Assembly (NCBI GenBank): GCA_964603065.1
Contig: CAZRTL010000004.1
Location: 9,686-73,685 of the forward strand
Source of the DNA: Candidatus Woesearchaeota archaeon
GTDB taxonomy: Archaea > Nanobdellota > Nanobdellia > SCGC-AAA011-G17 > PNOQ01
Length of the DNA stretch: 64,000 nt
Reading direction: 5' to 3'
Shown: positions 9,478-49,867 of the stretch, piece by piece
Layout of the letters: each line of letters opens with the position of its first letter
Position numbering within the stretch: the first letter of the stretch is position 1
The notes under the pieces: generated by a model
The model's database searches: none
What the model was told of the DNA's origin: nothing
Seen by the model: only the letters and a program-made list of their open reading frames with translations
Made by a program: the position numbers and the translations under genes

Positions 9478-10754
9478 AATTCATGCCAATAGAAGAAGCA
9501 TTAAAGAAAAAATCTGGAAAAGTAGCTATTCGGGGTTGGATTTATAGAATAAGGAAAATGAAAGATAAGAGTTTTATTGTTATGAGAGATTCTTCTGATA
9601 TTATTCAGTGTGTTTTGAAAACTCCTAAATTAGTTAAGGATGCTGATGATTTACTTATTGAAAGTTCTTTAGAGTTAGAGGGTACTTTGAATAAAGATAA
9701 GAGATCTCCCGGTGGTTATGAATTAAACATTTCTAAAATGAATATTATTCACAAGGCAGATGATTTCCCAATTGGTAAAGATCAAAGTCCTGAATTTTTA
9801 TTAGATCAAAGACATCTGTACATAAGAAGTAGAAAAATGACTGCAATTATGAAAATTAGAAGTACTGTTACTGGTGCTTTACATGAATATTTTAGAGGTA
9901 AAGATTTTTATGAATTTCAGAGTCCGATTATAATTCCTGGTGGAGCTGAAGAAGGGCCCACTATGTTTGAAATTAAATATTTTGATAGGCAAATGTTTTT
10001 GGCTCAAACTTGGCAATTGTATGCTGAAGCGGCAATGTTTGGTTTGGAGAAAATTTATTGTATTGCTCCTTCTTTCAGAGCGGAAAAGTCAAAAACTAGT
10101 AGACACTTAACTGAATACTGGCATACTGAAATGGAAGTTGCCTGGTGTGATTTAAGTCAACTAATGGATTATGCTGAAGAAATGGTCAAATTTGTTTTGG
10201 GTAAAGTTTTGAAGAAAAATAAAAAAGAGTTAGAACTTTTAGGTAGAGATGTTAAGAAATTAGAGCCTTCTCTAAAGAAAAAGTTTCCAAGAATTACTTA
10301 TGATGAGGCTCTAAAGAAATTGGAAAAAAACGGTATGAAGGTTGCTTGGGGTAAAGACTTGCGTACTTTGGAAGAAGAAAAACTAATGGAACTATATGAT
10401 ACTGTTGTTTTTGTAACTCACTATCCTAAAGAAGCTATGGCTTTTTACAAACCTAAGGACCCAAAAAATCCTAAAGTGTCCTTATGTTTTGATGCTCTAG
10501 GTCCTGAAGGGGTTGGAGAGTTGATTGGTGGAAGTGAGAGAGATACAAATATTAAAGAGTTAGTTGGTTCTTTAGAAAAATTAAATGAAAATATTGAAGA
10601 TTATAAATACTATTTAGATACAAGAAAATATGGTAGTGTCCCTCATGCTGGTTTTGGCTTAGGAACTGAAAGATTAATTAGATGGATATGTGGTTTGGAT
10701 TCAATAAAAGATGCCATAGGTTTTCCAAGAACAATACAGAGAACACAGCCTTAA
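9474..10754 (+). CDS. asnS: asparaginyl-tRNA synthetase
   Basis: Class IIb; N-terminal IRGWIYRIRK...FIVMRDSSDIIQCV; GLGTERL motif 3; ATGA overlap with aspS. Confidence 0.85.
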   Translation: MKFMPIEEALKKKSGKVAIRGWIYRIRKMKDKSFIVMRDSSDIIQCVLKTPKLVKDADDLLIESSLELEGTLNKDKRSPGGYELNISKMNIIHKADDFPIGKDQSPEFLLDQRHLYIRSRKMTAIMKIRSTVTGALHEYFRGKDFYEFQSPIIIPGGAEEGPTMFEIKYFDRQMFLAQTWQLYAEAAMFGLEKIYCIAPSFRAEKSKTSRHLTEYWHTEMEVAWCDLSQLMDYAEEMVKFVLGKVLKKNKKELELLGRDVKKLEPSLKKKFPRITYDEALKKLEKNGMKVAWGKDLRTLEEEKLMELYDTVVFVTHYPKEAMAFYKPKDPKNPKVSLCFDALGPEGVGELIGGSERDTNIKELVGSLEKLNENIEDYKYYLDTRKYGSVPHAGFGLGTERLIRWICGLDSIKDAIGFPRTIQRTQP

Positions 10755-16534: not shown

Positions 16535-17287
16535 ATGAAAATTAATGAAGATCTTGCTGAAGCATTTGGAATTCATGCTGGAGATGGATATTTAAGAGTT
16601 AAAGAAAGAAACAGAGGCGAGATAGATATTAGTGGAAATATTGAAGAAAAAGGATATTATGATGACCACGTAGTTCCTTTGTTTAATAAAATATTTAATT
16701 TAGATATGGGAGGAAGATATTTTTCTAGAGGTACTTATGGGTTTGTTAATTGTCAAAAGGAAGTTAGAAACGTTTTTCTTGAAGCAGGTTTCCCTTCTGG
16801 TAAAAAATCGCAAATTGTAAAAACCCCAGATTGTATTTTGAATAGTGGAGATGAAAAAATATACTCTAAATTTTTAAGGGGATATTTTGATACTGATGGT
16901 TGTTTATATTTTTGTAACAAAAAGGGAGGGGGAAAATATTGTGATTTCAAGAAAAAGTTTCATTATTATCCTCTTTTATCAGTATCTAGTGTATCGAAAA
17001 GATTAATTGAGGATGTGGTGTTTATTCTTAATAGAATTGGATTGCCTCACTATACTTATGATTATCAACCAAAAAATAAAAGAGATAATCATAAATGGGT
17101 TATAACTATTGCTGGAAAAAGTAGACTAGAGAAATGGATGAAATTAATAGGCACTAAAAATCCAGTAAAGCTCAGTAGATATTTAGTTTGGAAAAAGTTT
17201 GGATTTTGTCCTCCACATACTACTTTAAAGCAAAGGGAAGATTTTTTAAATGATAAAGCAGATATCAATTTACTATATTCAGCTTAA
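16535..17287 (+). CDS. free-standing double-motif LAGLIDADG endonuclease-family protein
   Basis: Motif 1 LAEAFGIHAGDGYL, motif 2 FLRGYFDTDGCL; 250 aa. Confidence 0.75.
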   Translation: MKINEDLAEAFGIHAGDGYLRVKERNRGEIDISGNIEEKGYYDDHVVPLFNKIFNLDMGGRYFSRGTYGFVNCQKEVRNVFLEAGFPSGKKSQIVKTPDCILNSGDEKIYSKFLRGYFDTDGCLYFCNKKGGGKYCDFKKKFHYYPLLSVSSVSKRLIEDVVFILNRIGLPHYTYDYQPKNKRDNHKWVITIAGKSRLEKWMKLIGTKNPVKLSRYLVWKKFGFCPPHTTLKQREDFLNDKADINLLYSA

Positions 17288-17354
17288 TGGGAGCCGAATG
17301 GTGGAGTTTAAGTACAAACCAACTGTGAAACCGTATTTCGACATTAGGTTGTTT

Positions 17355-17428
17355 GGGCCTGTAGTTTAATCTGGATAAAATTCTCGGTTTCGGCCCGAAG
17401 GATCCCGGTTCAAATCCGGGCGGGCCCG
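17355..17428 (+). tRNA. tRNA-Arg (anticodon TCG)
   Basis: Acceptor GGGCCTG/CGGGCCC, anticodon stem TCGG/CCGA with loop TTTCGGC, T-arm CCCGG-TTCAAAT-CCGGG, 74 nt, no encoded CCA. Confidence 0.7.
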
Positions 17429-17442
17429 TTTTATTTTGAAAG

Positions 17443-21125: not shown

Positions 21126-22925
21126 ATGAAAAAAATAATTTTTCTAATATTGTTCCTTGTTATCATTTCAAGCTGCATGATACAGGAAAAATCTCCACCC
21201 TCATTTAAAAAAATTTCGGAAATAGCTTCTGAAGAATATTGGGATTCTGGCTTTACTTATGATTTTCCTTACTCTTTTGATTGGTCTTATAGACATAATG
21301 ACAATTATATAACCGATCGGGACGAACAACATTCTAATAATTGTTGGTCTTACTCTACAGTTGCCGCTGTAGAATCTCATATGTTACTTACGGGGAGGGG
21401 AGAGTATGATTTTTCAGAACTAGGACTTATGTGGGAATGCCAAGAAAGGGTAGACTGTTATCTAATAAACTATATGGGTTGCAACGGCGGATCTGCGCGC
21501 CATGCAATTGGGATACTGGGGACTATTGCATATGAGGAAAGCTCTAATTGTTACCCAAATTCAGATCTAGAAAACCCTGGTTATCCTCATAATAGTTGTT
21601 CTTGTCCAAATTGTGTAGATCAAACTGATGATAATTCCAGTAATGACCCCTATAGTTGTAGCGCATATAATTTAGGAATCGGCTCAGGAATGAAACAAAA
21701 CATAATTATAACACAGGAAATGGTAAAATATCATTTGCTTTCAAGGGGTCCACTCACAGCCTCTTTCGCTCCAGGACCATATGGTGGAATTCATAATATG
21801 TTAATTTATGGTTACAGTGGAAATAATTGGATTGTTAAAGATAGCGCCTATAATAATTATCAAGATCGTCCTATGTCGGATACATTGTATAATATAGCCT
21901 GGCCAGAGAGCGGCTATTCTGAATTTTGCCAAAATGATGATGGTGATGCTTTTTGTTGGTGGGGAATAAGTTCAATGGTTGAATATCATGATCCGTTTGA
22001 AATATTTGGCTTACCTAGTAGCTGTGATGGGAAAGGATGTAGCAGAAATGAACCAGATTTTAATGATTATGTTGCTTGTGAAATAGATTCATCGGAAAAT
22101 TCTAATGGTGGGTGTGCACCCGAATTTGCCTGTGGTGATGGAGTTTGTCAGGGTTGGGAGTCATGCAGAACTGGTCCGCCGAATGGAGGGTGTTTTAACG
22201 ACTGCTACATACCTGGATATGGGGGCAGAAGTGATGCCTGTTGCGGGAACGGAATCTTCGAAGAGGTGGAAGATTGTTCAAACTGTCCACAGGACGTCCC
22301 AGGAGGCTGTCCCGAATGTTCTGATAGAATAGATAACGATGGAGATGGATTTGTTGATTACCAAGGTTATGTGTTTTCAGAATCAGATCAAGATTGTGAA
22401 AATTTTGAAGATGATTCAGAATCTACGGAAGAATGTATTTGTGGAGACAATAACTTGTGTGGCGACGAAATATGTGAATTAACTCAAGAAAGTAATGTGA
22501 TATGCTATGATGCTCTAGCACAAGATAAAAAATGTTATGGTCCATTTAGTTCATCTGATGATAGCTATTGGGATAAAGGAGCATGGATGGATAATAAATG
22601 TTATCCCTTGGTTGGAACAACTACTAGGGATTGCGAAAATTGTGAGAATTGGATTCCTAATTGGGATGATTGTAAAACTTGTCCTGCAGTTGACGGTATA
22701 AATCCGGAAGATTATTTGGAAAGAGTGTATGTGACAGAAACAGAATGTAGGCAAAAAAGATATTCGGATAATCAATGGGTAAATATTCCATTTGAAACAT
22801 ATCCTAGACAGTTTCCAAAAACAAAAGACATTCATTTCGAAGAACAGTCACCTGGAGAATCACTGAAAAGTTCTATTTGGAATAAACTTAAGTGTGCGTT
22901 GCTAACTTGTTCAGAGGATAGCTAG
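21126..22925 (+). CDS. secreted papain-like (C1-family) cysteine protease with Cys-rich, Ca-binding-like C-terminal extension
   Basis: Signal/lipobox (IISSCM), catalytic Cys NCWSYSTVAAVES, His HNMLIYGY, Asn/Trp downstream, DNDGDGFVD thrombospondin/dockerin-like motif; 599 aa. Confidence 0.75.
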   Translation: MKKIIFLILFLVIISSCMIQEKSPPSFKKISEIASEEYWDSGFTYDFPYSFDWSYRHNDNYITDRDEQHSNNCWSYSTVAAVESHMLLTGRGEYDFSELGLMWECQERVDCYLINYMGCNGGSARHAIGILGTIAYEESSNCYPNSDLENPGYPHNSCSCPNCVDQTDDNSSNDPYSCSAYNLGIGSGMKQNIIITQEMVKYHLLSRGPLTASFAPGPYGGIHNMLIYGYSGNNWIVKDSAYNNYQDRPMSDTLYNIAWPESGYSEFCQNDDGDAFCWWGISSMVEYHDPFEIFGLPSSCDGKGCSRNEPDFNDYVACEIDSSENSNGGCAPEFACGDGVCQGWESCRTGPPNGGCFNDCYIPGYGGRSDACCGNGIFEEVEDCSNCPQDVPGGCPECSDRIDNDGDGFVDYQGYVFSESDQDCENFEDDSESTEECICGDNNLCGDEICELTQESNVICYDALAQDKKCYGPFSSSDDSYWDKGAWMDNKCYPLVGTTTRDCENCENWIPNWDDCKTCPAVDGINPEDYLERVYVTETECRQKRYSDNQWVNIPFETYPRQFPKTKDIHFEEQSPGESLKSSIWNKLKCALLTCSEDS

Positions 22926-23287
22926 TATCCTATCAATAAAGAAGCCCAATCTTTCTTAGTTTTTCTGTTTTTAATTAAATAATTATGTAGTCTTTTTGAA
23001 GGAGAAGAAGAAATTGAATTTTTTATTTCTGGAAAAGGAATGGCTGGAAAAATAACTTCTTTGTCAATCTTTTTAACTATTTTTTTTTGAGGTTTTCTGA
23101 ATTTAGAATCGTGAAAAACCAGAATTATATTTTTTTTATTCAGAACCTCTTCCACTCCAATATTATTTGGTTCGTTTAATTTTCTAATTTTATTTATTTC
23201 TTTATTTTTTAGAGGGGTAGGACTATGTAACCCTTTAATAAACCTTAATTTTAAGATCTGAATAAATTTATTAATTGCCAATACCAT
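22922..23287 (-). CDS. hypothetical protein
   Basis: 121-aa ORF between protease and transglutaminase-like genes; lysine-rich; coding status uncertain. Confidence 0.25.
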   Translation of the reverse strand: MVLAINKFIQILKLRFIKGLHSPTPLKNKEINKIRKLNEPNNIGVEEVLNKKNIILVFHDSKFRKPQKKIVKKIDKEVIFPAIPFPEIKNSISSSPSKRLHNYLIKNRKTKKDWASLLIGY

Positions 23288-25155
23288 GGTAAATTATTAA
23301 TTATGATTCTTTGGGAGTACTCTTGAGTATAAATATTTCCATATTCATCTTCATATTCAATTGAAATTTGTATTCTTTCTGAGTTGAGTCCTTTAGAGTT
23401 TGCAGTTAGTGTAAAAGATTTGGTTCCTTGTAATTCTGGAAATTCTACTGGTTGAAATCTATTAATTTTTAGAATAATATTTTTTAATGGGGTTGGGGAA
23501 TTGATTTCTATAGGGATTTTTATTTCTTCATTATAATTTATTTGATTAATATCTATTTGTGAAATTTCAATTTTAGGTTTTTCGATTATACTTAGAATAA
23601 CATTTCTTCTAACTTCTATTTCTGAATTTTTTAGTATTGCTTTTATTGGTTTGTTTAAGTTGGCAAAAGTAAATATGAATTCTTTCTCTGAATTCGCCGG
23701 CATATCAAAATTTTGACAATCTTCATTTAAACATAAACTTAAACCATTTATATTATTGTTAAAGGTTCTGACTAAACAATTCACTTCAGCCTCTTCGAAA
23801 GAATAAAAGTAAGTTTTTTTAGGGTTACAATTAAGAACTATTTGGTTAGAGTATGAATCCTCCTCATCAATTTCTAAAGAATCCACTATTTCTTGGGCTG
23901 CTTCTAGTGTTACTGATTCACCTCCTAAGAAAAAAGTTACTACTGTTGATTCTCTGGACCCATATAGATCAATAAATTCTATTGTTGTTGTGTAAGTATA
24001 TCCTTCTTGTGCTTCTTTCGGAAGTTTAAATATCCAGAATGTTTCTTTTTCTCCCCTTGGTTTCAATGCTATTAATTTTTGATTGTTTTCTATTTCTCCC
24101 GGAGCTTTTGTTAATATTATTGAATTCGATAAATAAGCATCATAAGGATTATTAACTTTTATTCTTACGGGAACATAGCTCCCTGGAGCAACATTATCTT
24201 TTAAGACAACTATGGAAGTTTCAAAGGGAGATATTATTTTGTTTCCCTGATTAGTTATTGTTGCGACGGTTGATATTTCTTGAGATGTATCTATGTTAAG
24301 CTGACCCGAAGATTCCCATTCGTATAGGATGGAAGTTTCTATGTCCTCCGATTTTTGGAGTGCTATGTGAGTTGGATCTATCCATCCTAATTGTCCATAA
24401 GTAACATCATAAGGCACCCATCCATATTCTGGGAAGTAGACTTCTGCCCATCCGTGATTTCCAAATTTGTCTCCTAAATTAGTGTAGGCCATTCCTGAAA
24501 TGAATCTAGCTGGAATTCCTATTGACCGAGTCATAGAAATAAATAAGGAACTTATTTCATCACATACCCCATATTCATTTTCTAAAACCCAAGAAGATTT
24601 TTGTGAAGCTTTTTCTGTAAGTGTAGTTAAATTGTATTCTATATTATCGTTTATCCACATTCCTATTTTGTGTACTGCCATATAAGCATTATCTTCAGAC
24701 TGAATAATCTCTGATGTTTTTGAGATTATTTCTGGAGTTATATCTATTTTTTCTTCTGATTGTAAATATTTATTATAATCTGAGGATAAATCTGAATAGG
24801 GAAAACTGATTTCTGGAACTTGATATAATTTGTTTGTTGTTTCAATCTGTTTGTTAAATCCAAATGAATAATCAGTTGACTGTTGCTCCCATATATATGT
24901 TATGAAGCCATCTGAAGTTATTTGGGAATTGGGAGAAGAATATTCTTCTGAGGATAAAATTTCTTGTATGTTATCATTTATTGGATTTAAAAAAACAGTG
25001 GCCATTAACTCATTTAAACTCCCAGATCCGACTAGGGAAACTTGAGAATCTAAAGAGAAATCAATTTGTAAAGTTTGGTAAATATTATAATTATCTTGAG
25101 CAAGAACTAAATTAAATGATAGGAATATTAATATTAACAAAAATATTTTTTTCAT
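23251..25155 (-). CDS. secreted transglutaminase-like (Cys-His-Asp) domain protein
   Basis: Signal peptide; core YGVCDEISSLFISMTRSIGIPARFISG...GNHGWAEVYFPEYGWVPYDVT (Cys, His, Asp triad); 634 aa. Confidence 0.7.
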   Translation of the reverse strand: MKKIFLLILIFLSFNLVLAQDNYNIYQTLQIDFSLDSQVSLVGSGSLNELMATVFLNPINDNIQEILSSEEYSSPNSQITSDGFITYIWEQQSTDYSFGFNKQIETTNKLYQVPEISFPYSDLSSDYNKYLQSEEKIDITPEIISKTSEIIQSEDNAYMAVHKIGMWINDNIEYNLTTLTEKASQKSSWVLENEYGVCDEISSLFISMTRSIGIPARFISGMAYTNLGDKFGNHGWAEVYFPEYGWVPYDVTYGQLGWIDPTHIALQKSEDIETSILYEWESSGQLNIDTSQEISTVATITNQGNKIISPFETSIVVLKDNVAPGSYVPVRIKVNNPYDAYLSNSIILTKAPGEIENNQKLIALKPRGEKETFWIFKLPKEAQEGYTYTTTIEFIDLYGSRESTVVTFFLGGESVTLEAAQEIVDSLEIDEEDSYSNQIVLNCNPKKTYFYSFEEAEVNCLVRTFNNNINGLSLCLNEDCQNFDMPANSEKEFIFTFANLNKPIKAILKNSEIEVRRNVILSIIEKPKIEISQIDINQINYNEEIKIPIEINSPTPLKNIILKINRFQPVEFPELQGTKSFTLTANSKGLNSERIQISIEYEDEYGNIYTQEYSQRIIINNLPWYWQLINLFRS

Positions 25156-35612: not shown

Positions 35613-36209
35613 TTATTTTTTTCTTAGAAGTGACAATAATAAAAGTATCAGAATTACAAATAAAGAACCCATTAGGAAAACTAGAGCATAGTTTGGATCT
35701 ACAGCTTGGGTTGCTACTTCTACTGCCAAATCTGTAGCTTGATCTTTTCCGGGGAGAGCTTTACCTGCTACTTCTGTTTGTGCCTCAGATAGGGAGCTTA
35801 CAGTTTTTGTAGCGAATGTTCTAGTATTCTGCCATAAGTAAATTATGCCGGATCCAACTAAACTTAACAGAGTAACTGGAAGAAGATTTTTTAATTTTGA
35901 TAAGTTATTTTCAGAAGAATCCGGTGCGATTATAATATATTTTTTTGCTAGTTTGTACACTAACATTTCTTTTCCTTTTTTACTCCAGAAAAATTCTTTT
36001 GCTTCTATTAATTTAGCTTTTTTTAATTGCTGAATATTATAATGTATTGTTGGAAGAGGCACTTTTAGTTCTTTTGCTATGTCTGATTCTGTAGATTCTT
36101 TATGTTCTGCTAGATATGAGATTATTTTTTGAGCAGTTTTGTTTGACATGGCATCTGCTACTGCTTTTGAATCTTTCATTGAGAGTAGCATAAATGTTTC
36201 GTCTTTCAT
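35613..36209 (-). CDS. ArsR-type wHTH regulator with C-terminal membrane anchor
   Basis: HTH LPTIHYNIQQLKKAKLIE; C-terminal TM LVFLMGSLFVILILLLLSLL; 198 aa. Confidence 0.55.
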   Translation of the reverse strand: MKDETFMLLSMKDSKAVADAMSNKTAQKIISYLAEHKESTESDIAKELKVPLPTIHYNIQQLKKAKLIEAKEFFWSKKGKEMLVYKLAKKYIIIAPDSSENNLSKLKNLLPVTLLSLVGSGIIYLWQNTRTFATKTVSSLSEAQTEVAGKALPGKDQATDLAVEVATQAVDPNYALVFLMGSLFVILILLLLSLLRKK

Positions 36210-39591: not shown

Positions 39592-40437
39592 ATGGAAATG
39601 GATGTTGAAAGCACTTCTAAATTAATAAGGGGTAAGAAGGAAATTTGTGTTTTTTATAATGATAAAATTTTTGAAGAAGTTATGTCTAATTTGAATCCAA
39701 AAGAAATTATGGGAATTTCTAGAAGATCTGTTTATTATTGGAAGCAAAAAGAGAGACCTATTCCAGTTTCTCATTTAGTCAGTATTTGTAAAAATAATAA
39801 TATTGAAAAAATTAATCTTGTGTCTTTATCTACCAATAGCGGAAATAAAATTAATTTACCTGAAAGCAATAATTTATCTTTATATCATTTTTTGGGATTA
39901 TTATTGGGAGACGGATGTCTTTGTATAAGTAAAGAAAGAGAATTGAAGAGACAAAGCTACACAGTTAGAATTGCTGTTAATAGCAAAAATAGAATAAATC
40001 AAATTTCTAGATTAATGGAGTCTCTTTTTGGAATTAAACCTAGTTGTCATAAATGTAAAGGGTGCTATGAAGTTTGTATTTACTCTAAGGCTTTGTTATT
40101 TTTCTTGAATACATATTATGAAATCCCCATTGGTGAAAAATATCCACTTATGAAGGTTCCTTTGAGAATAAAAAATGATTTTGATAGTATAAGATATTTT
40201 CTAAGAGGATTAATGGATAGCGATGGAAATCAATATATCTATAGGGGGAGATTGTGTTTTCAATTGAGACAAAAATCTGGAGAATTTCTTAGTGAAGTCT
40301 ATAACTTATTTCATAAAATTGGTATGAATATAAATGGGCCCTATTTTGATAAAGCTAATAATTCTTGGGTGATTTGGTGTAGTAAAAAAAACATTGTAGA
40401 TAAATTTATAAATGAAATAGATGCTCTTAAAATTTAG
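39592..40437 (+). CDS. LAGLIDADG endonuclease-family protein with N-terminal HTH
   Basis: Motif 1 LYHFLGLLLGDGCL, motif 2 FLRGLMDSDGNQ; N-terminal HTH-like segment (EIMGISRRSVYYWKQK); 281 aa. Confidence 0.7.
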   Translation: MEMDVESTSKLIRGKKEICVFYNDKIFEEVMSNLNPKEIMGISRRSVYYWKQKERPIPVSHLVSICKNNNIEKINLVSLSTNSGNKINLPESNNLSLYHFLGLLLGDGCLCISKERELKRQSYTVRIAVNSKNRINQISRLMESLFGIKPSCHKCKGCYEVCIYSKALLFFLNTYYEIPIGEKYPLMKVPLRIKNDFDSIRYFLRGLMDSDGNQYIYRGRLCFQLRQKSGEFLSEVYNLFHKIGMNINGPYFDKANNSWVIWCSKKNIVDKFINEIDALKI

Positions 40438-40438
40438 T

Positions 40439-40560
40439 GGACTGGTAGCTCAGCTTGGATAGAGCACTAAAGAAGTTTTGCGCGAGTATGCTTCTGTGTA
40501 GGCCTTCTAAACCAAGTTGAAGAAAGCTAGGGGTCGAGGGTTCAAATCCCTTCCAGTCCG
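40439..40560 (+). tRNA. tRNA-like gene interrupted by a ~48-nt insertion (intron-containing tRNA or pseudo-tRNA); anticodon unresolved
   Basis: Perfect 7-bp acceptor stem GGACTGG/CCAGTCC; canonical D-arm TAGCTCAGCTTGGATAGAGCA; T-arm GAGGG-TTCAAAT-CCCTT; ~48 extra nt between them. No single-intron model gives a canonical anticodon loop. It starts 2 nt after the stop codon of the LAGLIDADG gene. Confidence 0.5.
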
Positions 40561-40566
40561 CTTTTT

Positions 40567-41088
40567 TTAAAAATCAAAATTAACAAGTAATTTGTATTCT
40601 AATTCTCTGTCTTGATCTAGATTTAATTTGTATTGTGCACGAGTCCCTCTGATATTTCTTGTTAATTCAAAATTTAGATCGCTTAGTCTTGAAGATCCAT
40701 CGTAACCTAAATCTAATATGGCTTCCGTACTTAGTTTAAATTGTCCCGGTAAATTTGCATTTAAAGCATTTCTAAGGATTATTCCATCCCGATCTAAGCC
40801 ATATACATCTGTTTTAATATTAGAATCAAAATAAGGTGGGCCAAATTGTGTATTCGGAGAATATTTTTTGAGGGATTTTTCCAATTCAGCCAAAGTATTA
40901 TCCCGAGGTTTTTCTTTGGCAGAAAGATTTAAGGAGCTTCCATCAAACATTTCAACCAATCTTCTGTTTTCCTCTTGTTTTAGCTGTTTTTTAACATAAT
41001 TTATATCTATGTCTTGAGAAGTGAATTGGAGCACAGCTAGTAATATTATTGATGCTTTTTTTCCAATATTTTTCCATAGTGTCATTTT
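40567..41088 (-). CDS. secreted hypothetical protein
   Basis: Probable start at MTLWKNIGKKASIILLAVLQF (signal peptide); the longer ORF in the track runs into tRNA-Cys, so the internal start is preferred. Confidence 0.4.
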   Translation of the reverse strand, partial: KMTLWKNIGKKASIILLAVLQFTSQDIDINYVKKQLKQEENRRLVEMFDGSSLNLSAKEKPRDNTLAELEKSLKKYSPNTQFGPPYFDSNIKTDVYGLDRDGIILRNALNANLPGQFKLSTEAILDLGYDGSSRLSDLNFELTRNIRGTRAQYKLNLDQDRELEYKLLVNFDF

Positions 41089-41178
41089 TACTACCAATGA
41101 TTGGTAACTTTTACTTATAAATGTACTGTTTGTATAAGAAAGATATTTAAAGTTTAAATTACATCTTATTTCACAAGT

Positions 41179-41249
41179 GCGCACGTGGCCAAGCGGTAAG
41201 GCAAGAGGCTGCAACCCTCTGATCCCCGGTTCGATTCCGGGCGTGCGCT
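41179..41249 (+). tRNA. tRNA-Cys (anticodon GCA)
   Basis: Acceptor GCGCACG/CGTGCGC, discriminator U73, anticodon stem AGAGG/CCTCT with loop CTGCAAC, T-arm CCCGG-TTCGATT-CCGGG; 71 nt. Confidence 0.8.
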
Positions 41250-41252
41250 TTT

Positions 41253-41624
41253 TTAATGAATATAACCTTTTATTCTATATTCTTCATATAATAACATATA
41301 ATGGTATGCTTGGGCCACCCAGTATAATTTATCTCCCTCTGTAGAATGAATTGTAAATTCCGATCCCATATTCAGACTACACTCTGCAACTATCTTTTCC
41401 AGCTCATTGACTTTTTGTTGTCTTCTTACTGTTAAATCAACTTTTTTAACCCAATCTTCTTTAATATTTTTAGTTAAGAAATCATAAACATTTTGGGGAG
41501 TAAATTTCTTTCCATCCCTAAGTTCGGCTATAAATGGGTTTATTCCTTCTCGTTTCATACGTCTCGATTTAGAATTTTCTTTTCTTATCGCTCTTGCTTC
41601 AGATGTTCTTTTTTTAGTAGCCAA
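41253..41624 (-). CDS. hypothetical basic protein
   Basis: 123 aa ORF abutting tRNA-Cys. Confidence 0.35.
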   Translation of the reverse strand: MATKKRTSEARAIRKENSKSRRMKREGINPFIAELRDGKKFTPQNVYDFLTKNIKEDWVKKVDLTVRRQQKVNELEKIVAECSLNMGSEFTIHSTEGDKLYWVAQAYHYMLLYEEYRIKGYIH

Positions 41625-41696: not shown

Positions 41697-43415
41697 TTAT
41701 CTTCTTTTCCTAAATAATAGGACTAAGAAGTATATTGCTACGATTACTAAGACGATATCTCCTAGTATCCAAAAGACTGTTGTCCAAGTACCCTCTTCTA
41801 AACCAAGACCTGCCCATCCTGTTGGTAGGAATACCATATTTTGTTCTTCTTGATTTTCTTGAGTAGTGTCTACTATTACTTCTTCTTCAAGCACTTCAGT
41901 AGCAACACAACCCGAAAGAGTTATTGATTCAACATAGTTCTTTTGTTCATCTAAATCATCGTAGTATAGTGTAAAAGTCAGTGTATAGTCTTGATTTTCC
42001 ATGTCCGCAGGTATATCTGCAGTTAGGTAAACAGTATTGTCATCATCACTATCATCATATTTGTCCAGTTCAAATGTTTCTGAATATATATCGATTCCTA
42101 ATGCTGAATTGTACATTCTAACTTTTACTGCATCATCATTTCTTCTTCCAACATTTTTGACATCTAATTCTGCTGTGAATGTTCCTTCACAACTTAGTGT
42201 AATTGGAGTGATTATGATTTCGTCTATGATAACTTTGTGATCTGGTCTATCAATATCTACTACTTCAACTTCTTCGATACATTGTTCATCTTCATTATCA
42301 TCTTCGTATGCAATAACATGAACTTCATAATCTCCATCGTCTAAATCATCATCTAGATCAAGTTCAAATTGGAAAGATTCTTTCTTATCTTCATCTATGT
42401 CGATTCGATCACTTTCTTCTGATTCAATTTTTCTTGTTTTACCTTCTTCAGTAATCCATACTTCGACAATAACATCGTCTATATCATCATTTCCACGATT
42501 TTCAACTTCTACGTCAACAATTATTGTGTCTCCTGGAGAATATTCATCATCGTCTAGATCAAAATCTTCTATTCTAAGATCTCCAACGTCACAAAGATCA
42601 TCTTCACCTAGTATGTTAACATCCTCCTTTACCTTAACATCATGATGAGTTGCTTCGTCATCTGTTTTGTAGGCTTTAACGTAAAGATCATAGTTGTCAT
42701 TTGGATCTAAATTTTCATGAAGATCTAAATCAATTGTAAATGTTTCATCTTGTCCATCATCTATTGTTTGATCACTAGATGATTCTTCAAAAGCTACTAC
42801 TTGTTTAAGATCTGAATTATATAACCATACTTCTAACATAACATTAGTTGTTAGATCTTCGTTTCCAGTATTTTCAACATCTATATTTAATTCTATTGTT
42901 CTCCCAGCTCTCATTTGATCTGGAATATCATCATATGAATCTGTATCTACAATCTCAAGGTATCCTGCTTGACCGGTATATTGGTCAACAAAAACTGTTG
43001 CAGTTATAACTGCTGTAGTTATATCTTGGTTTATTGTATCATTATATAGTGCTGTAAATGTAGCAGTATATTGTCCCATCATTGTGCTTAATGAAGGAAC
43101 TGTCATTGTTACGTTTACATCTTCTGATTCATCCGGTATTAATGTAAAGTTGTTCGGACTAAAAATTGTGGACCCCTCAAAACTTTTATTTCCTATAAAT
43201 TCGTTTGAGTAACTGAATAATCCTGAATCCAGTGTAATCTCTGTTGCATTTTCTGGACCTGGATTTGTTATTGTTAATGTTGTTTCAACACTTGAATCTT
43301 GGTTTGCATCTCCAAAATCTACAGAAACTGGGTCAAAAGCCAGTTCTGCGCTTACAAATGCTGCTAATAACATTAAAAATATACCTAAAAATGATATTTT
43401 TTTATTCATTGTCAA
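41697..43415 (-). CDS. acidic cell-surface protein with CARDB-like repeats and C-terminal LPTG-TM-RKRR anchor
   Basis: Signal peptide; repeated ...N.GN.D...V.L.V motifs (CARDB-like) in D/E-rich spacers; C-terminus FLPTGWAGLGLEEGTWTTVFWILGDIVLVIVAIYFLVLLFRKRR. Confidence 0.65.
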   Translation of the reverse strand: MTMNKKISFLGIFLMLLAAFVSAELAFDPVSVDFGDANQDSSVETTLTITNPGPENATEITLDSGLFSYSNEFIGNKSFEGSTIFSPNNFTLIPDESEDVNVTMTVPSLSTMMGQYTATFTALYNDTINQDITTAVITATVFVDQYTGQAGYLEIVDTDSYDDIPDQMRAGRTIELNIDVENTGNEDLTTNVMLEVWLYNSDLKQVVAFEESSSDQTIDDGQDETFTIDLDLHENLDPNDNYDLYVKAYKTDDEATHHDVKVKEDVNILGEDDLCDVGDLRIEDFDLDDDEYSPGDTIIVDVEVENRGNDDIDDVIVEVWITEEGKTRKIESEESDRIDIDEDKKESFQFELDLDDDLDDGDYEVHVIAYEDDNEDEQCIEEVEVVDIDRPDHKVIIDEIIITPITLSCEGTFTAELDVKNVGRRNDDAVKVRMYNSALGIDIYSETFELDKYDDSDDDNTVYLTADIPADMENQDYTLTFTLYYDDLDEQKNYVESITLSGCVATEVLEEEVIVDTTQENQEEQNMVFLPTGWAGLGLEEGTWTTVFWILGDIVLVIVAIYFLVLLFRKRR

Positions 43416-43446
43416 ATAACCCCCATGGTATTGATATTTGTTATGA

Positions 43447-44046
43447 TTGTGGAGTTGTGAATCGCTTATAAAGGTTTCTATGGCAAATTTTATAAGTTCG
43501 TTTTCTGAGAATATTGCTATGATTAGGTACTATTATAATCTTATAATTAGATTATTAATTATTTTAATTGTTACTATAAATTATCCTCTGTTTTATGTTA
43601 TTTTGAGTCCCATTACTGTATATTTGAGTTATTTTATACTTGGATTATTTTATGATGTTTTGTTAATTGGAAGTAGTATTGGGATAAATGGTGCAGGGTT
43701 TAGGTTTATTGAGGCTTGTGTTGCTCCTGCTGCCTACTATTTATTGTTTATTTTAATTATTGGATTGAAGGATTTAGACTGGAAAAAAGGTTTGAAAATG
43801 TTCTTTTTGGGCAGTTTATTGATTTTAGGAATGAATTTGTTAAGAATTATTATACTAATTGTTTTAGATGTTGAGTTTGGGAAAGATTATTTTGATGCTG
43901 TCCATCTGATATTTTGGAACTTTGTCTCCGGAGTTTACATAGCTTTAGTTTGGATTTTTTTGGTTAAAAAGTTCAAAGTCAGTAAAATTCCGTATTATTC
44001 TGATTTGAAATATTTCTATAAAAAGAGTTTTCTTAGAAAGAAGTAA
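43447..44046 (+). CDS. polytopic membrane protein, exosortase/archaeosortase-like candidate
   Basis: About 6 TM; Cys in IEACVAPAAY and Arg in MNLLRIII, resembling the Cys/Arg signature helices of the exosortase family; divergent from the surface-protein gene; true start probably internal. Confidence 0.4.
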   Translation: MWSCESLIKVSMANFISSFSENIAMIRYYYNLIIRLLIILIVTINYPLFYVILSPITVYLSYFILGLFYDVLLIGSSIGINGAGFRFIEACVAPAAYYLLFILIIGLKDLDWKKGLKMFFLGSLLILGMNLLRIIILIVLDVEFGKDYFDAVHLIFWNFVSGVYIALVWIFLVKKFKVSKIPYYSDLKYFYKKSFLRKK

Positions 44047-44485
44047 ACCCAAAGTAAATAGATGAAACTATTAGGGCAGCTACAAAAACGCCCAAGGCTA
44101 TTGTTAGTATTGCTTTTATTCTGTTTATTTTGAATAACCAAGCGGCTAAAGCTCCTGTATATGCTCCAGTTAATGGAAAAGGGATAGCTACGAATAAAAA
44201 TAAGGTGGGCAATTCCCATTTCGTTCCGATTTTATGTTCTATTTTTTTTCTCGCCCTATTTACCCATTTATTAAAAAAATATCTATAGGGTTTTATTTTG
44301 TAAAATTGATGATGTAATGTATCTAGAAATATCAAAAATATTGGAACTATCAATATATTTGCTAAAATAGAAAAAATGAACGCCGTTGGAAAACTTATTC
44401 CAGTTTGTAGAGCATAAGGTAGGCCACCTCTAACTTCGGAGATAGGAAGCATACTAAGAATTATTGAGTTTAATAGATTGTTCAT
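44033..44485 (-). CDS. small membrane protein (small multidrug-export/COG2426-like)
   Basis: PISEVRGGLPYAL motif and 4 TM; 150 aa. Confidence 0.4.
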   Translation of the reverse strand: MNNLLNSIILSMLPISEVRGGLPYALQTGISFPTAFIFSILANILIVPIFLIFLDTLHHQFYKIKPYRYFFNKWVNRARKKIEHKIGTKWELPTLFLFVAIPFPLTGAYTGALAAWLFKINRIKAILTIALGVFVAALIVSSIYFGFTSF

Positions 44486-47018: not shown

Positions 47019-47066
47019 TTACTTTTTATCTTGAGAACCTTGAAAAATCATTAAATCTTCGGTTGT
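47019..47066. repeat. 48-bp direct repeat, copy B (3' end of gene 47019..47864)
   Basis: See copy A. Confidence 0.85.
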
Positions 47067-47864
47067 AAGTTTTTTCTTTGTTTTTAATTTCTCTTCAACT
47101 TCTCTAGTTTTTTCTTTAAGAACTTTATCTGTTTCTCTTTTGTTCTTTGAAATTATTTCTTCGCCCAATTCTTTAGCATTTTTTAGTTTATTTTTTAACT
47201 GTTCATTAACTTTAGAAAATTTTTCTTTGGATTCTATAAATTTTTTAAAAGCCTCTTCTTGCTCTTTTCTTAATTCATTTATCTTTTTTGTTAACTCGAA
47301 AAATTCAGAATATCCTTTTGCTTCTTTAGATTCATCTCTTATTTTTTTATGATATTCTTCTGCTTTTTGTTTTGTTTTTGTTATTTTATCAGAAAGTTCT
47401 TTTAATTCCTTGAATAATGATTGTACATCTCCTGCATCTTGGAGTTGTTTTTTAAATTGATTAATTTGCCTCATGATTGTCTTTTCTTTTTCAAAAGACA
47501 CCCCTTCTGTTTCTATCGTAAACTCTAATTTTTCAATTTTCTTTATTATTCCAGATGGATCGAAGTTAATCTTCTTTTCCTTTAGAATTTTTTGTTTTTC
47601 TTTGTTTAGTTCTTGAAACTTTTTAATTAATCCCTGGACTTCTTTGTTATATTTGTCTCTTTCTGTTTTTAATTTCTGAATATTTTCACTTGATTTATCT
47701 TTTTTTGTTTTTAAAGATTTAATTTTGTTAATTAGACTAGAAATATCTTTTTTCAAGTTCTCCTTTTTAGAAAACCAGTTTTCTTTCTGGATATTTAATT
47801 CGTTCAAACTTTTTTTTAGTTGAATTATTTCTTCTTTAAGTTTCGTTGATTGTTTTTTGTCCAT
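47019..47864 (-). CDS. K/E-rich coiled-coil protein
   Basis: 281 aa, heptad-rich; last 16 codons lie in repeat B. Confidence 0.4.
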   Translation of the reverse strand: MDKKQSTKLKEEIIQLKKSLNELNIQKENWFSKKENLKKDISSLINKIKSLKTKKDKSSENIQKLKTERDKYNKEVQGLIKKFQELNKEKQKILKEKKINFDPSGIIKKIEKLEFTIETEGVSFEKEKTIMRQINQFKKQLQDAGDVQSLFKELKELSDKITKTKQKAEEYHKKIRDESKEAKGYSEFFELTKKINELRKEQEEAFKKFIESKEKFSKVNEQLKNKLKNAKELGEEIISKNKRETDKVLKEKTREVEEKLKTKKKLTTEDLMIFQGSQDKK

Positions 47865-47909
47865 TAAGCATCACTCAATAAAAAATATAAAAAAAGAAAA
47901 AGGAAAAAT

Positions 47910-48206
47910 TTAACCGAAAAGAGCTCCTAGTCCAGCAGCTGCTTGACCTTCATCTTTCTTTTCTTCTTCTTTCTTTTCTTCCTTCTTTTCTTCAGATGGT
48001 GTACTTTCTGAAGATGGAGCGGCACTTACAACAGCGGCTTCTTTGATTGCTTTTTCTATATCGACACCATCTAAAGCAGCAACTAATGCTTTAACTTTGG
48101 TATCATCTACTTTTGCGCCAGCTGCATCCATGACTTTTTTTAATTTTTCTTCATTGATTTCACTACCTGATTTGTGAAGGAGTAATGCTGCATATATGAG
48201 TTCCAT
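47910..48206 (-). CDS. rpl12: ribosomal stalk protein P1 (L12e)
   Basis: MELIYAALLLH... and acidic EEKKEE...GLGALFG tail. Confidence 0.85.
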   Translation of the reverse strand: MELIYAALLLHKSGSEINEEKLKKVMDAAGAKVDDTKVKALVAALDGVDIEKAIKEAAVVSAAPSSESTPSEEKKEEKKEEEKKDEGQAAAGLGALFG

Positions 48207-48224
48207 TTTAATACCTCCAATGAA

Positions 48225-49130
48225 TTATGATTCATTTGCCTCCTGTGTGTTGTTTTCTTCTTTATTCTCTTCTGCCTTTGTTTCTTCTGTTGTCTCTTCT
48301 TTTTGTTCCTCTGTTGTCTCTTCTTGTTTTTCTACTGGTTTCTCTTCAGTAGATTCTTCAGGTACTTTTGTTGATAAAGCCAAAGCTTCACGCTCCGCCT
48401 TTTGAAGTAATATTTCAGTAGTTTCCTGAGTAGGATATGATATGAACACAGCTAAATTTAGTGCTTCTCTAGCCATATTTTGTAAATTTTCTATATATTC
48501 TTCTTCTCTTACAGATAATACATCCGATCTGAATATTTGTCCATCTTGGTATATTGCTTTTAGATTTAGCCCAATTTGTATTGGTTCTATTCCAAATTTA
48601 TCCAGAACTCCAGTTTGTTTTTCTGTCAGTGTATCTCCTTCTTTTGCAATCACTGTTTCTTTTTGAACAACTATCTTACCATCTTCAACTGCAGCAATTA
48701 TCCCTGCTTGTCCAAGTTCTCCTATAATCGGTCCTGGTGTGAAAGCAGTTGGCCCCGCAGGTATAACTAAATCCTTAGGAGCTATTTGTCCTGGCTTAGC
48801 TGCCATATTGGTTTTATTTTGATCAAGAGTTTTTGCTATTTTGAAAGCGTCTTCTTCTGTGACTAATAAAGCAGGAATACATTTTTCTAAATCTTTTTCT
48901 AATTCTTCTATTCCTTTTTTATTTTCTTTTATTTTTTCTAGAGCTAATTTAATTAGAGATTTTTTAGTAACTGTTATTTGTAATTTATCTTTTAGTTTTG
49001 ATTTAATTTTTTGAAATTGTGCAGAAGGCAAACTAGTTAGATCAACTATTCCTATATTTTTGGAATTCTTGATTAGATTAATTATTCTTGCAAGTTCTTT
49101 TTTCTTTGCTTCTGATACGTGAGCTTTCAT
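48225..49130 (-). CDS. rpl10: ribosomal protein P0 (L10)
   Basis: L10 core plus acidic C-terminal tail; follows L1 in a conserved operon. Confidence 0.85.
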   Translation of the reverse strand: MKAHVSEAKKKELARIINLIKNSKNIGIVDLTSLPSAQFQKIKSKLKDKLQITVTKKSLIKLALEKIKENKKGIEELEKDLEKCIPALLVTEEDAFKIAKTLDQNKTNMAAKPGQIAPKDLVIPAGPTAFTPGPIIGELGQAGIIAAVEDGKIVVQKETVIAKEGDTLTEKQTGVLDKFGIEPIQIGLNLKAIYQDGQIFRSDVLSVREEEYIENLQNMAREALNLAVFISYPTQETTEILLQKAEREALALSTKVPEESTEEKPVEKQEETTEEQKEETTEETKAEENKEENNTQEANES

Positions 49131-49867
49131 TTCTTAACCTCTTTAGGTTCTTTTTTTTTAGGTTCTGTCTTTTTCTTTACTTTTACTTTTTTTTCATGAA
49201 CTATTGGCCCTTTATCGGTTATTTCAACAGAAGGGCTCATTGTGAATTTGATAAATACAGATTTTATATTATCTTTTTCTCTTGGTAATGCATGTAATAA
49301 AGTATTATAGGCAAAATGGATATTTTCGACTATATCTTCTTCTGTCATATCTTCTGATCCTACCGAGGATTTAACTAAAAGTTGATCTTTCATTACAAAT
49401 CTTACTGTAGATTCTATTTTCTTTTTTATTGGTTCCAAAGTTGGGATTACTGGGGGAACAATACAACCTGCTTTCGGGTTTGGCATCTTTCCTTTTGGTC
49501 CAAAAACCTTACCAAACGCTGTGGCTATTTCTCCCATTAAATTTGCTTGTGCTACAAAATAGTCGAATTCTATAGCTAACTTTTTTGTTGCTTTTTTGTC
49601 TTTTGAATATTTTTGAAAATCTTCTTTTAGAATTACTTTATCAAAAATTTTAGCTTTTGTTTCTAACTCTTTGTCAACTAAAGCACAAATTTTTGGTTTT
49701 TTTTGTTTTTCTTTAGGTAATTGTAAGAATAAATCTACTTTTTGTTCTGAATTTTTTGGATTTAATTGTTTAAGATTTACGATTAAGTCAATCGATTGAT
49801 TAAACTTCCTTTTTTTAGAAATCCCACGTAATTTTTTTGTTGATTCTAATATAACTTTTTTATCCAT
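49127..49867 (-). CDS. rpl1: ribosomal protein L1
   Basis: FGKVFGPKGKMPNPKAGCIVPP signature; 246 aa. Confidence 0.9.
   Translation of the reverse strand: MDKKVILESTKKLRGISKKRKFNQSIDLIVNLKQLNPKNSEQKVDLFLQLPKEKQKKPKICALVDKELETKAKIFDKVILKEDFQKYSKDKKATKKLAIEFDYFVAQANLMGEIATAFGKVFGPKGKMPNPKAGCIVPPVIPTLEPIKKKIESTVRFVMKDQLLVKSSVGSEDMTEEDIVENIHFAYNTLLHALPREKDNIKSVFIKFTMSPSVEITDKGPIVHEKKVKVKKKTEPKKKEPKEVKK

Follow-up and report, generated by a model that had tools for sequence, protein, structure and literature searches.

A probable pacearchaeosortase and dedicated PACE-CTERM surface protein pair in a Woesearchaeota/Pacearchaeota-type archaeon

The precedent for archaeosortase action is ArtA of Haloferax volcanii, for which cleavage and lipid anchoring are documented and a Cys and an Arg are essential (PMC9263693, PMC7157517). 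These residues are Cys173 and Arg214 (PMC9263693), and the SLG of this species is among the substrates of the enzyme. PGF-CTERM proteins number from 1 to 52 per genome, and reviews still confine archaeosortases to a subset of Euryarchaeota (PMC6098224). A Cys/Arg/His chemistry has been proposed for both sortase A and the exosortase/archaeosortase families, in which these residues form the family triad, and whether archaeosortases are one-step transpeptidases has been listed as unresolved (Haft 2023). NCBIfam holds two further models, NF033505 (‘pacearchaeosortase’) and NF033506 (‘PACE-CTERM-PROT, putative S-layer protein’), whose members come from metagenome-assembled genomes (MAGs) of Woesearchaeota, Pacearchaeota and Nanoarchaeota. 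This family has been catalogued, never studied: our search of one literature library for work on pacearchaeosortase, PACE-CTERM, or archaeosortases of Woese-, Pace- or Nanoarchaeota found no relevant paper.

The subject here is a divergent gene pair in a 64-kb stretch of archaeal DNA, the whole of which we term the window. We consider it likely that the pair consists of a pacearchaeosortase and its dedicated PACE-CTERM substrate, carrying out archaeosortase-type C-terminal processing in a marine archaeon of Woesearchaeota/Pacearchaeota type (DPANN). Its two genes are adjacent, score above the cutoffs of the two NCBIfam models and share their taxonomic range; nothing essential differs, the window clade merely lacking the PAP2 gene that can intervene in relatives. 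Identical proteins are present in NCBI, and GenBank homologues at 78% and 57% identity bear the names pacearchaeosortase and PACE-CTERM-PROT. The contig is also present in JGI 3300007510 and in ENA SUTE22-1 samples. Because NCBIfam models exist for precisely such a pair, it is not a new class, and the claim of discovery in the first-pass annotation, which had proposed a novel CTERM class, is pre-empted.

The enzyme gene occupies 43519..44046 on the forward strand and, read from its ATG at 43519, encodes 175 amino acids (aa). Two other starts are available, the ATG at 43480 (the NCBI call, 188 aa) and the TTG at 43447 (199 aa), which opens the open reading frame (ORF) 43447..44046(+). The ATG at 43519 is probably the true start, because it coincides with the beginning of the homologues and of the NF033505 profile, and because of a palindromic TATA-like sequence, TTATAAA, at 43466-43472. 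That sequence falls within the intergenic region shared by the two divergent genes (43410..43518), which on sequence reading would serve as promoter region. NF033505 matches the protein with 142.7 bits against a cutoff of 80, over profile positions 2-166 of 167, and the exosortase/archaeosortase signature TIGR04178 matches with 38.5 bits (cutoff 23), its profile positions 5-92 of 97 being aligned to residues 89-172. These hidden Markov model searches bear out the earlier reading of the ORF at 43447..44046 as an exosortase/archaeosortase-family member. Homologues number 55; in the set of 31 used below, NF033505 matches all and TIGR04178 all except one (30/31). PF09721 (Exosortase_EpsH) gives 21.1 bits for the window sortase, short of its gathering score of 25.7, and several homologues have a precomputed match to it.

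Among better known relatives, ArtA belongs to the same TIGR04178 superfamily, although the ArtA-family model itself has no match to the window sortase, and weak ArtE matches occur in 6 of the 31 homologues and weak ArtD matches in 3. ArtA has ∼300 aa, against ∼175 aa in five helices for the window enzyme. The small bacterial exosortases XrtF (TIGR04128) and XrtX (NF046081) are closer in size, with profiles of 168-174 positions, and show a weak, consistent likeness (24.5 and 22.3 bits, respectively) that extends along the catalytic half, XrtX being matched by 15 of the 31 homologues. These scores are however far under the cutoffs of 90 and 170, and both exosortases belong to another domain of life and have other substrate signals.

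Five residues, R35, C91, N130, R133 and H153, are invariant across the 31 homologues. Cys91 (codon 43717..43719, forward strand, in the motif IEACVAP) is the putative nucleophile and is placed by hydropathy and the AlphaFold2 (AF2) model at the outer start of the third transmembrane helix (TM3); Arg133 (codon 43843..43845, forward strand, in N130-L-L-R133) lies in TM4, and His153 (codon 43903..43905, forward strand) at the predicted outer start of TM5. The first-pass annotation had singled out the Cys and the Arg, to which His153 can now be added, and had expected a polytopic protein, in agreement with the five helices predicted by hydropathy and AF2. The AF2 model (pLDDT 90.9), together with hydropathy and the positive-inside rule, predicts that C91, R133 and H153 face the outer leaflet and that the basic C-terminal tail is cytoplasmic. 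We found no solved structure of the sortase fold for active-site geometry. The spacing from Cys to Arg is 42 residues in the window sortase (Cys91-Arg133) and 41 in ArtA (Cys173-Arg214), a comparison by inference and not an alignment.

The substrate gene lies at 41697..43409 on the reverse strand, within an ORF (41697..43415(-)) that encodes 572 aa if the TTG at 43415 is taken as the start and 570 aa if the ATG at 43409 is; the latter is the start in public records, where P0056 is 100% identical to the substrate. NF033506 matches it with 158.3 bits against a cutoff of 110. Its architecture is that of a secreted-type protein with a PACE-CTERM tripartite tail, namely a signal-peptide-like N-terminus, a helix reading VFWILGD...LLF and a terminal RKRR. 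A putative Sec-type signal peptide read from the sequence, MNKKISFLGIFLMLLAAFVSA (43347..43409, reverse strand), is common to homologues and would be cleaved after VSA; in the AF2 model (pLDDT 84.7) it corresponds to a helix at residues 5-17, after which the first beta domain begins. Four acidic beta-sandwich domains of the Ig-like CARDB/DUF11 type follow (41916..43346, reverse strand; aa 22-143, 146-267, 278-386 and 393-498), with Pfam matches to CARDB (33.0 bits, cutoff 22.7) and DUF11 (33.2 bits, cutoff 24.6) and also to DUF4832 above its cutoff. All five N-x-S/T sequons are within domain 1. The pI is 4.05, and Asp and Glu make up 27% of the ectodomain. A low-complexity acidic/Thr/Gln linker or stalk (41835..41915, reverse strand) follows the domains; the model shows disorder over residues 504-537, including the LPTG, at pLDDT <50, and a terminal helix at 539-569. 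The acidic CARDB-type surface protein with its FLPTG, hydrophobic helix and RKRR is thus present as first described.

Foldseek searches with the substrate model match Ig-array proteins, among them the H. volcanii S-layer structure 7ptp_A (E 6e-11). ArtA and the window sortase are alike, then, in being paired with an Ig-array surface protein that bears a tripartite signal, and the SLG structure is itself the one matched. By analogy with this fold, and given the database name and the acidity, the substrate is probably the main surface or S-layer protein.

The C-terminus reads ...NMVFLPTGWAGLGLEEGTWTTVFWILGDIVLVIVAIYFLVLLFRKRR and then stops. On the reverse strand it resolves into the motif VFLPTG (41817..41834), conserved in the subfamily as [VI][FY][LIM]PTG; a 13-residue spacer, WAGLGLEEGTWTT (41778..41816), separating the PTG motif from the hydrophobic helix; the transmembrane helix VFWILGDIVLVIVAIYFLVLLF (41712..41777), with the AF2 helix starting at residue 539; and the basic cluster RKRR (41700..41711), the predicted cytoplasmic end of the signal, beyond which come the stop codon and then a T-rich, terminator-like run. 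A profile built from the tail only recovered 88 cluster representatives at E<=1e-3 from 1.84 billion proteins, nearly all at the extreme C-terminus, so that the tail is far from a chance resemblance. The most conserved element is the helix start FWILGD (41757..41774), which contains F546, W547 and D551. Among 100 tail representatives, 3-4 bits are found at F0, W1, I2, G4, D5, L8, F15, L18 and F20, in line with the argument that strong helix conservation is to be expected where an intramembrane enzyme reads the signal (Haft 2023). The tail profile search favours the helix block, so that the ‘universality’ of the helix among the 100 representatives is partly circular; the 12 sortase-linked loci described below form an unbiased set, and in 11 of their 12 substrates W-x-x-x-D stands at the helix start. 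By this sequence comparison the common signal element is the strongly conserved helix start FW-I-x-G-D. The ArtA signal differs in having PGF, absent from the window tail; in the PACE-CTERM signal the helix starts with FW-I-x-G-D, and an upstream PT[GST] is optional.

The LPTG calls for separate treatment, as the first-pass annotation had taken it for an LPxTG-like motif. We rejected an LPXTG pentapeptide in the substrates: the window motif is LPTG, without the X, and lies within a disordered linker, 13 residues separating it from the helix; [LIMY]PTG is present in 30 of 100 tails, and only 5 of the 12 sortase-linked substrates have LPTG or, set off by a spacer, a PT[GS] variant. What the system has in common with sortase A is a tripartite tail in which a spacer separates the helix from a motif containing P-T-G, whereas the enzyme fold is unrelated, the X-less motif is not family-wide and there is no peptidoglycan target. 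That the LPTG is a genuine LPXTG-type signal, cut by a classical sortase (class A-F) whose gene lies at another place in the genome, is a reading to which we give almost no credence. It draws on a superficial likeness of LPTG, helix and basic tail to Gram-positive signals, and is opposed by the missing X position, by the dedicated, co-conserved archaeosortase-family gene next door and by Pfam results: the classical sortase family PF04203 matched none of 46 scanned window ORFs and has no entry in public Pfam annotation covering the ∼21.7 kb in which the pair lies.

A variant that keeps the same enzyme-substrate pair would put the scissile or recognition site at LPTG/[FY]xPT[GST] in the linker, with a spacer as in sortase A and the helix only docking, a convergent sortase-A-like logic on an archaeosortase fold. 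In an alignment of 32 substrates otherwise 23-73% identical, Pro529 is invariant, one of only five invariant columns across the entire alignment, and Thr530 is nearly so, the two forming an island of conservation within the low-complexity disordered linker. Moreover [FY]xPT is found in 54 of the 100 representatives, with a preferred distance of 17-18 residues from FW, and proline-containing signature motifs such as PEP and PGF are typical of exosortase/archaeosortase signals. Against this, the motif is missing from 35 of 100 representatives and from 4 of 12 sortase-linked substrates, and in three others [IV]P[TL]S directly abuts the helix. Where a sorting enzyme lies deep in the membrane, the motif of its signal adjoins the helix directly and a spacer is lacking (Haft 2023), and the predicted position of Cys91 is at the membrane interface, ∼13 residues away from the LPTG along the chain. 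We therefore regard this variant as unlikely. More doubtful still is an elaboration in which the PACE-CTERM signal would be bipartite, with a scissile LPXTG-like [FY]xPT[GST] ∼13-18 residues above the membrane and an FW-I-x-G-D helix that docks through pairing of its buried Asp with an invariant intramembrane Arg of the enzyme, the surface layer being anchored to host-derived lipid in a lipid-auxotrophic DPANN cell. If true, such a signal would be an undescribed hybrid of sortase-A and archaeosortase logic, and the PAP2 gene that recurs beside the pair in relatives would hint at a lipid-phosphate step.

The pairing of the two genes is conserved beyond the window. All 31 sortase loci from GTDB are in Woesearchaeota or Nanoarchaeota MAGs, in keeping with the DPANN origin first suggested. 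Exactly one tail-bearing ORF was found at each of 12 sortase-anchored GTDB species loci (nine at E<=1e-5, three only weakly), always upstream and divergent, at 65-3392 nt from the sortase. In the reverse direction, two tail-bearing proteins on long contigs (L040 and L042/43) both have a sortase upstream and divergent; three others (P0129, P0100 and P0151) are on short contigs of 5-8 kb with no sortase in reach, which is uninformative and not negative. Since about 10 of the 31 sortase loci, mostly those of more divergent sortases, have no tail-bearing gene within 6 kb, the pairing is common but not universal. When every ORF of the window was searched with the tail profile, the substrate was the single match (68.4 bits, E 4e-20). 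One tail protein per genome fragment fits a dedicated one-substrate system, and one substrate per pacearchaeosortase locus stands in contrast to the 1 to 52 of ArtA. The dedicated pair proposed at first is accordingly seen across related loci. Of the further expectation that other proteins share the signal, the wide recurrence across genomes (the 88 representatives) stood, and a second bearer in the window did not; the first-pass annotation had named the absence of other bearers as grounds for rejection, a misleading test for a one-substrate system.

These data also bear on a different account, that the tail is a permanent transmembrane anchor of one protein family, that the archaeosortase homologue is inactive or acts elsewhere, and that the proximity of the genes is synteny beside a ribosomal L1/L10/P1 block. 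The entire region is indeed syntenic, some sortase loci have no nearby tail gene, and the sampled tail proteins look like one broad family sharing two membrane-proximal domains. Of ten tested against NF033506, eight match, five above cutoff, and P0129 and P0142 do not match; P0121 differs in its N-terminal domains and has the two membrane-proximal domains in common, at 28% identity over 303 aligned residues. P0121, P0129 and P0142 thus give at best partial support for carriage of the tail by unrelated proteins. Yet the helix, with 3-4 bits per position and a buried Asp, greatly exceeds the ectodomain in conservation, a pattern unusual for a passive anchor; the divergent pairing persists where the N-terminal domains vary and where the genes between the two (PAP2 and others) do; and the enzyme has an invariant catalytic triad. 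We judge the passive-anchor account highly improbable.

On the preferred reading, of a sortase acting on its neighbour, the substrate would be exported by the Sec pathway through its N-terminal signal peptide and first retained in the membrane by its C-terminal helix, with RKRR on the cytoplasmic side. The sortase would be a minimal five-helix intramembrane cysteine protease/transpeptidase of the archaeosortase family, with Cys91, Arg133 and His153 near the outer membrane face, reading the FW-I-x-G-D helix start and possibly also the upstream [FY]xPT[GST]. It would cut the substrate just outside the helix and, on the precedent of Haloferax ArtA, the new C-terminus would be transferred to a membrane lipid.

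Abundant, uncultivated ultrasmall marine archaea probably owe their outermost surface to this pair, a layer that is their contact face with hosts, viruses and nutrients. With its 175 aa and one adjacent substrate, the minimal enzyme would moreover be a simple model for how archaeosortases read their signals, and could show whether they are one-step transpeptidases.

The organism probably cannot make its own lipids. Neither pssA nor pssD, which figure in comparison with the ArtA system, was seen in the window, in Pfam scans of 46 ORFs and the public annotation of the ∼21.7 kb in which the pair lies. Relatives have a different recurrent lipid-related neighbour, a PAP2 phosphatase gene, found between the pair in 13 of 31 related loci. 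It is missing in the window clade, where the two genes are directly head-to-head, and a search of every ORF of the 64-kb window found neither PAP2 nor a second tail-bearing substrate. On the other side of the sortase, a convergent gene for a membrane protein of the Sm_multidrug_ex family (PF06695, 111.8 bits; 44033..44485, reverse strand) shares its last 14 nt with the 3′ end of the sortase gene; this neighbour recurs in most related loci and is linked to the pair by synteny only.

Two divergent genes, a 572-aa ORF read from TTG at 41697..43415(-) and a polytopic membrane-protein ORF at 43447..44046(+), lie exactly where the first-pass annotation placed them, and were proposed there to encode a surface protein with a sorting signal and an exosortase/archaeosortase-like enzyme. 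Profile searches bear out the enzyme: against a cutoff of 80 it reaches 142.7 bits with NCBIfam model NF033505 ‘pacearchaeosortase’, and against a cutoff of 23 it reaches 38.5 bits with TIGR04178, the exosortase/archaeosortase signature. The surface protein matches NF033506, ‘PACE-CTERM-PROT, putative S-layer protein’, at 158.3 bits, where the cutoff is 110. Family profiles, invariant residues and conserved pairing show the feature to be real and the functional guess essentially right. The further proposal of a novel CTERM class fails: since both proteins exceed the cutoffs of two purpose-built models, the pair was already described by NCBI curators, and these exact proteins are already public. 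GenBank names homologues pacearchaeosortase (78% identity to the sortase) and PACE-CTERM (57% to the substrate). Our literature search for the pacearchaeosortase/PACE-CTERM system found no paper mentioning it, and a 2018 review still confined archaeosortases to ‘a subset of Euryarchaeota’ (PMC6098224).

We put the sortase start at the ATG at 43519, giving 175 aa, in line with its homologues, with the family profile and with the position of a TATA-like TTATAAA (43466-43472); the gap between the head-to-head genes is 70-109 nt. The 55 sortase homologues are each 170-210 aa long. Aligning 31 of them gives R35, C91, N130, R133 and H153 among the invariant residues. The Cys and Arg that had been singled out in the first pass, in IEACVAP and NLLR, are C91 and R133, and with H153 they make up the full Cys/Arg/His set given for the superfamily (Haft 2023). 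AF2 predicts the fold with confidence (pLDDT 90.9): five helices (4-44, 46-66, 89-105, 112-144, 146-175) together with a small beta sheet (71-86); a search of solved structures found none resembling this fold. The loop KDLDWKKGLK and a basic C-tail (10 Lys/Arg) point to the cytoplasm and the acidic loop DVEFGKDYFD to the outside; on this topology we infer a position toward the outer leaflet for C91, R133 and H153. In Haloferax ArtA, Cys173, Arg214 and Arg253 are essential (PMC9263693); by direct count, with no alignment, the Cys-to-Arg spacing is 41 residues in ArtA and 42 in the window's sortase.

Public gene calls start the substrate at the ATG at 43409, two codons past the TTG, giving 570 aa; this protein is 100% identical to a public entry (P0056) in NCBI, JGI and ENA, carried by contigs as long as 76.5 kb. 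With a pI of 4.05 and 27% Asp+Glu in the ectodomain, it is strongly acidic; it has CARDB and DUF11 matches above Pfam cutoffs and ends in ...NMVFLPTG-WAGLGLEEGTWTT-VFWILGDIVLVIVAIYFLVLLF-RKRR. Its AlphaFold2 model (mean pLDDT 84.7) has a signal helix at the N-terminus, then four beta-sandwich domains (22-143, 146-267, 278-386, 393-498) and, after the LPTG-containing disordered linker (504-537), a terminal helix (539-569). The model resembles Ig-array proteins, among them a Haloferax S-layer structure (7ptp_A, E 6e-11), a match compatible with a surface-layer role without proving it. Two other large secreted proteins in the window are without the PACE tail: a 599-aa protein at 21126-22925(+), whose N-terminus resembles a lipobox (LVIISSC) and which matches no Pfam family, and a 634-aa transglutaminase-core protein at 23251-25155(-).

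Scanning GTDB with each species represented by one genome gave 31 sortase loci, every one from Woesearchaeota or Nanoarchaeota MAGs. A tail profile built from 100 tails was searched against every ORF of these loci and the window. Twelve loci have exactly one tail-bearing ORF, nine at E<=1e-5 and three (L005, L007, L014) weakly (E 0.006-0.29), the latter all having a W-x-x-x-D helix start despite the weak match. The tail-bearing ORF is always upstream of and divergent from the sortase, at 65-3392 nt. In a thirteenth locus (L004, substrate at L004:3583-5187) the tail is N-masked in the GTDB copy directly after ...NVQY; its public counterpart, P0098, has NVQYLPTG... at this point. In the reverse direction, both tail-bearing proteins found on long contigs have a pacearchaeosortase upstream and divergent, and a PAP2 gene too (L040:5670-6242, L042:6737-7300). 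In about 10 of the 31 loci, mostly those with more divergent sortases, no gene with the tail lies within 6 kb, which makes the pairing common rather than universal.

The expectation that other proteins would share the tail held among public sequences and not within the window, where the substrate is the sole match. Against 1.84 billion cluster representatives the tail-only profile found 88 matches (E<=1e-3), nearly all at the extreme C-terminus, mostly of 430-740-aa proteins with a signal-peptide-like start; some are short fragments. Ten diverse tail-bearing proteins fell five above the NF033506 cutoff, three below it and two without a match. The tail-bearing protein P0121 has cadherin-like N-terminal domains and shares the two membrane-proximal domains with the window substrate (28% identity over 303 aligned residues). 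These proteins look like a single broad family of surface proteins that differ in their outer domains and have a dedicated enzyme.

The signal had been called LPxTG-like; LPTG is not LPXTG, and is this subfamily's version of an optional upstream motif. In 100 helix-aligned tails, F0, W1, I2, G4, D5, L8, F15, L18 and F20 carry 3-4 bits and the upstream P/T/G positions only 0.9-1.5; [FY]xPT occurs in 54, [LIMY]PTG in 30, and P[TS] nowhere in 35. As the profile search favours the helix block, the 12 substrates reached via their sortase are a fairer sample: 11 have W-x-x-x-D at the helix start, five have PT[GS] with a spacer, three have [IV]P[TL]S immediately next to the helix, and four have none of these P-T motifs. 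The common denominator is the helix start, not LPTG. In signals of deeply embedded sorting enzymes the motif abuts the helix, while LPXTG has a spacer (Haft 2023); on that basis the enzyme more probably recognises FW-I-x-G-D. A bipartite signal is a less likely possibility. Real constraint acts on the PT dipeptide in the window's subfamily: an alignment of 32 whole substrates has five invariant columns, one of them Pro529, with Thr530 close to invariant.

The most likely order of events would be export of the substrate via Sec, transient anchoring by its C-terminal helix, recognition of that helix inside the membrane, a cut close to the outer interface made by Cys91 with help from Arg133 and His153, and, by analogy with Haloferax ArtA substrates, transfer to lipid. 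Lipid transfer has been shown for the Haloferax substrates, where PssA and PssD are also needed (PMC7157517). Pfam scans of 46 window ORFs, and public annotation over ~21.7 kb around the pair, showed no classical sortase, pssA or pssD. In 13 of the 31 loci the sortase has a gene for a PAP2-family phosphatase immediately upstream (for example L003:5315-6004, L010:2045-2623, L012:5290-5865); this gene lies between sortase and substrate genes wherever the substrate was found, and may provide a lipid-phosphate step tied to anchoring or glycosylation. It is absent next to the sortase in the window and its closest relatives, and a search of every window ORF found none.

The sortase 3′ end overlaps by 14 nt a conserved convergent neighbour, the membrane-protein gene Sm_multidrug_ex (PF06695; 44033-44485(-)), beyond which a DUF7121-like gene and ribosomal P1/L10/L1 genes (47019-49867(-)) show conserved synteny with the sortase across many Woesearchaeota loci. 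A 198-aa winged-helix protein (HTH_20/TFIIE-alpha-like; 35613-36209(-)) with a C-terminal hydrophobic helix and RKK has the look of a transcription regulator tethered to the membrane; its C-terminus gives no match with the PACE tail profile. Tandem class-II (Asp/Asn/Lys-type) aminoacyl-tRNA synthetase paralogues at 8122-9477(+) and 9474-10754(+) overlap by 4 nt. Two LAGLIDADG_3 ORFs, both free-standing, sit directly 5′ of same-strand tRNA genes: 16535-17287, 66 nt before tRNA-Arg(TCG) (17354-17429), and 39592-40437, 1 nt before a tRNA (40439-40560) that ARAGORN missed and whose anticodon region carries an insertion (intron) of ~47 nt. tRNA-Cys(GCA) at 41179-41249(+) lies beneath two mechanical ORFs: 40567-41214(-) from TTG, shortened in public gene calls to 172 aa (40567-41085), and 41177-41344(+), which is nothing more than the tRNA translated as protein.
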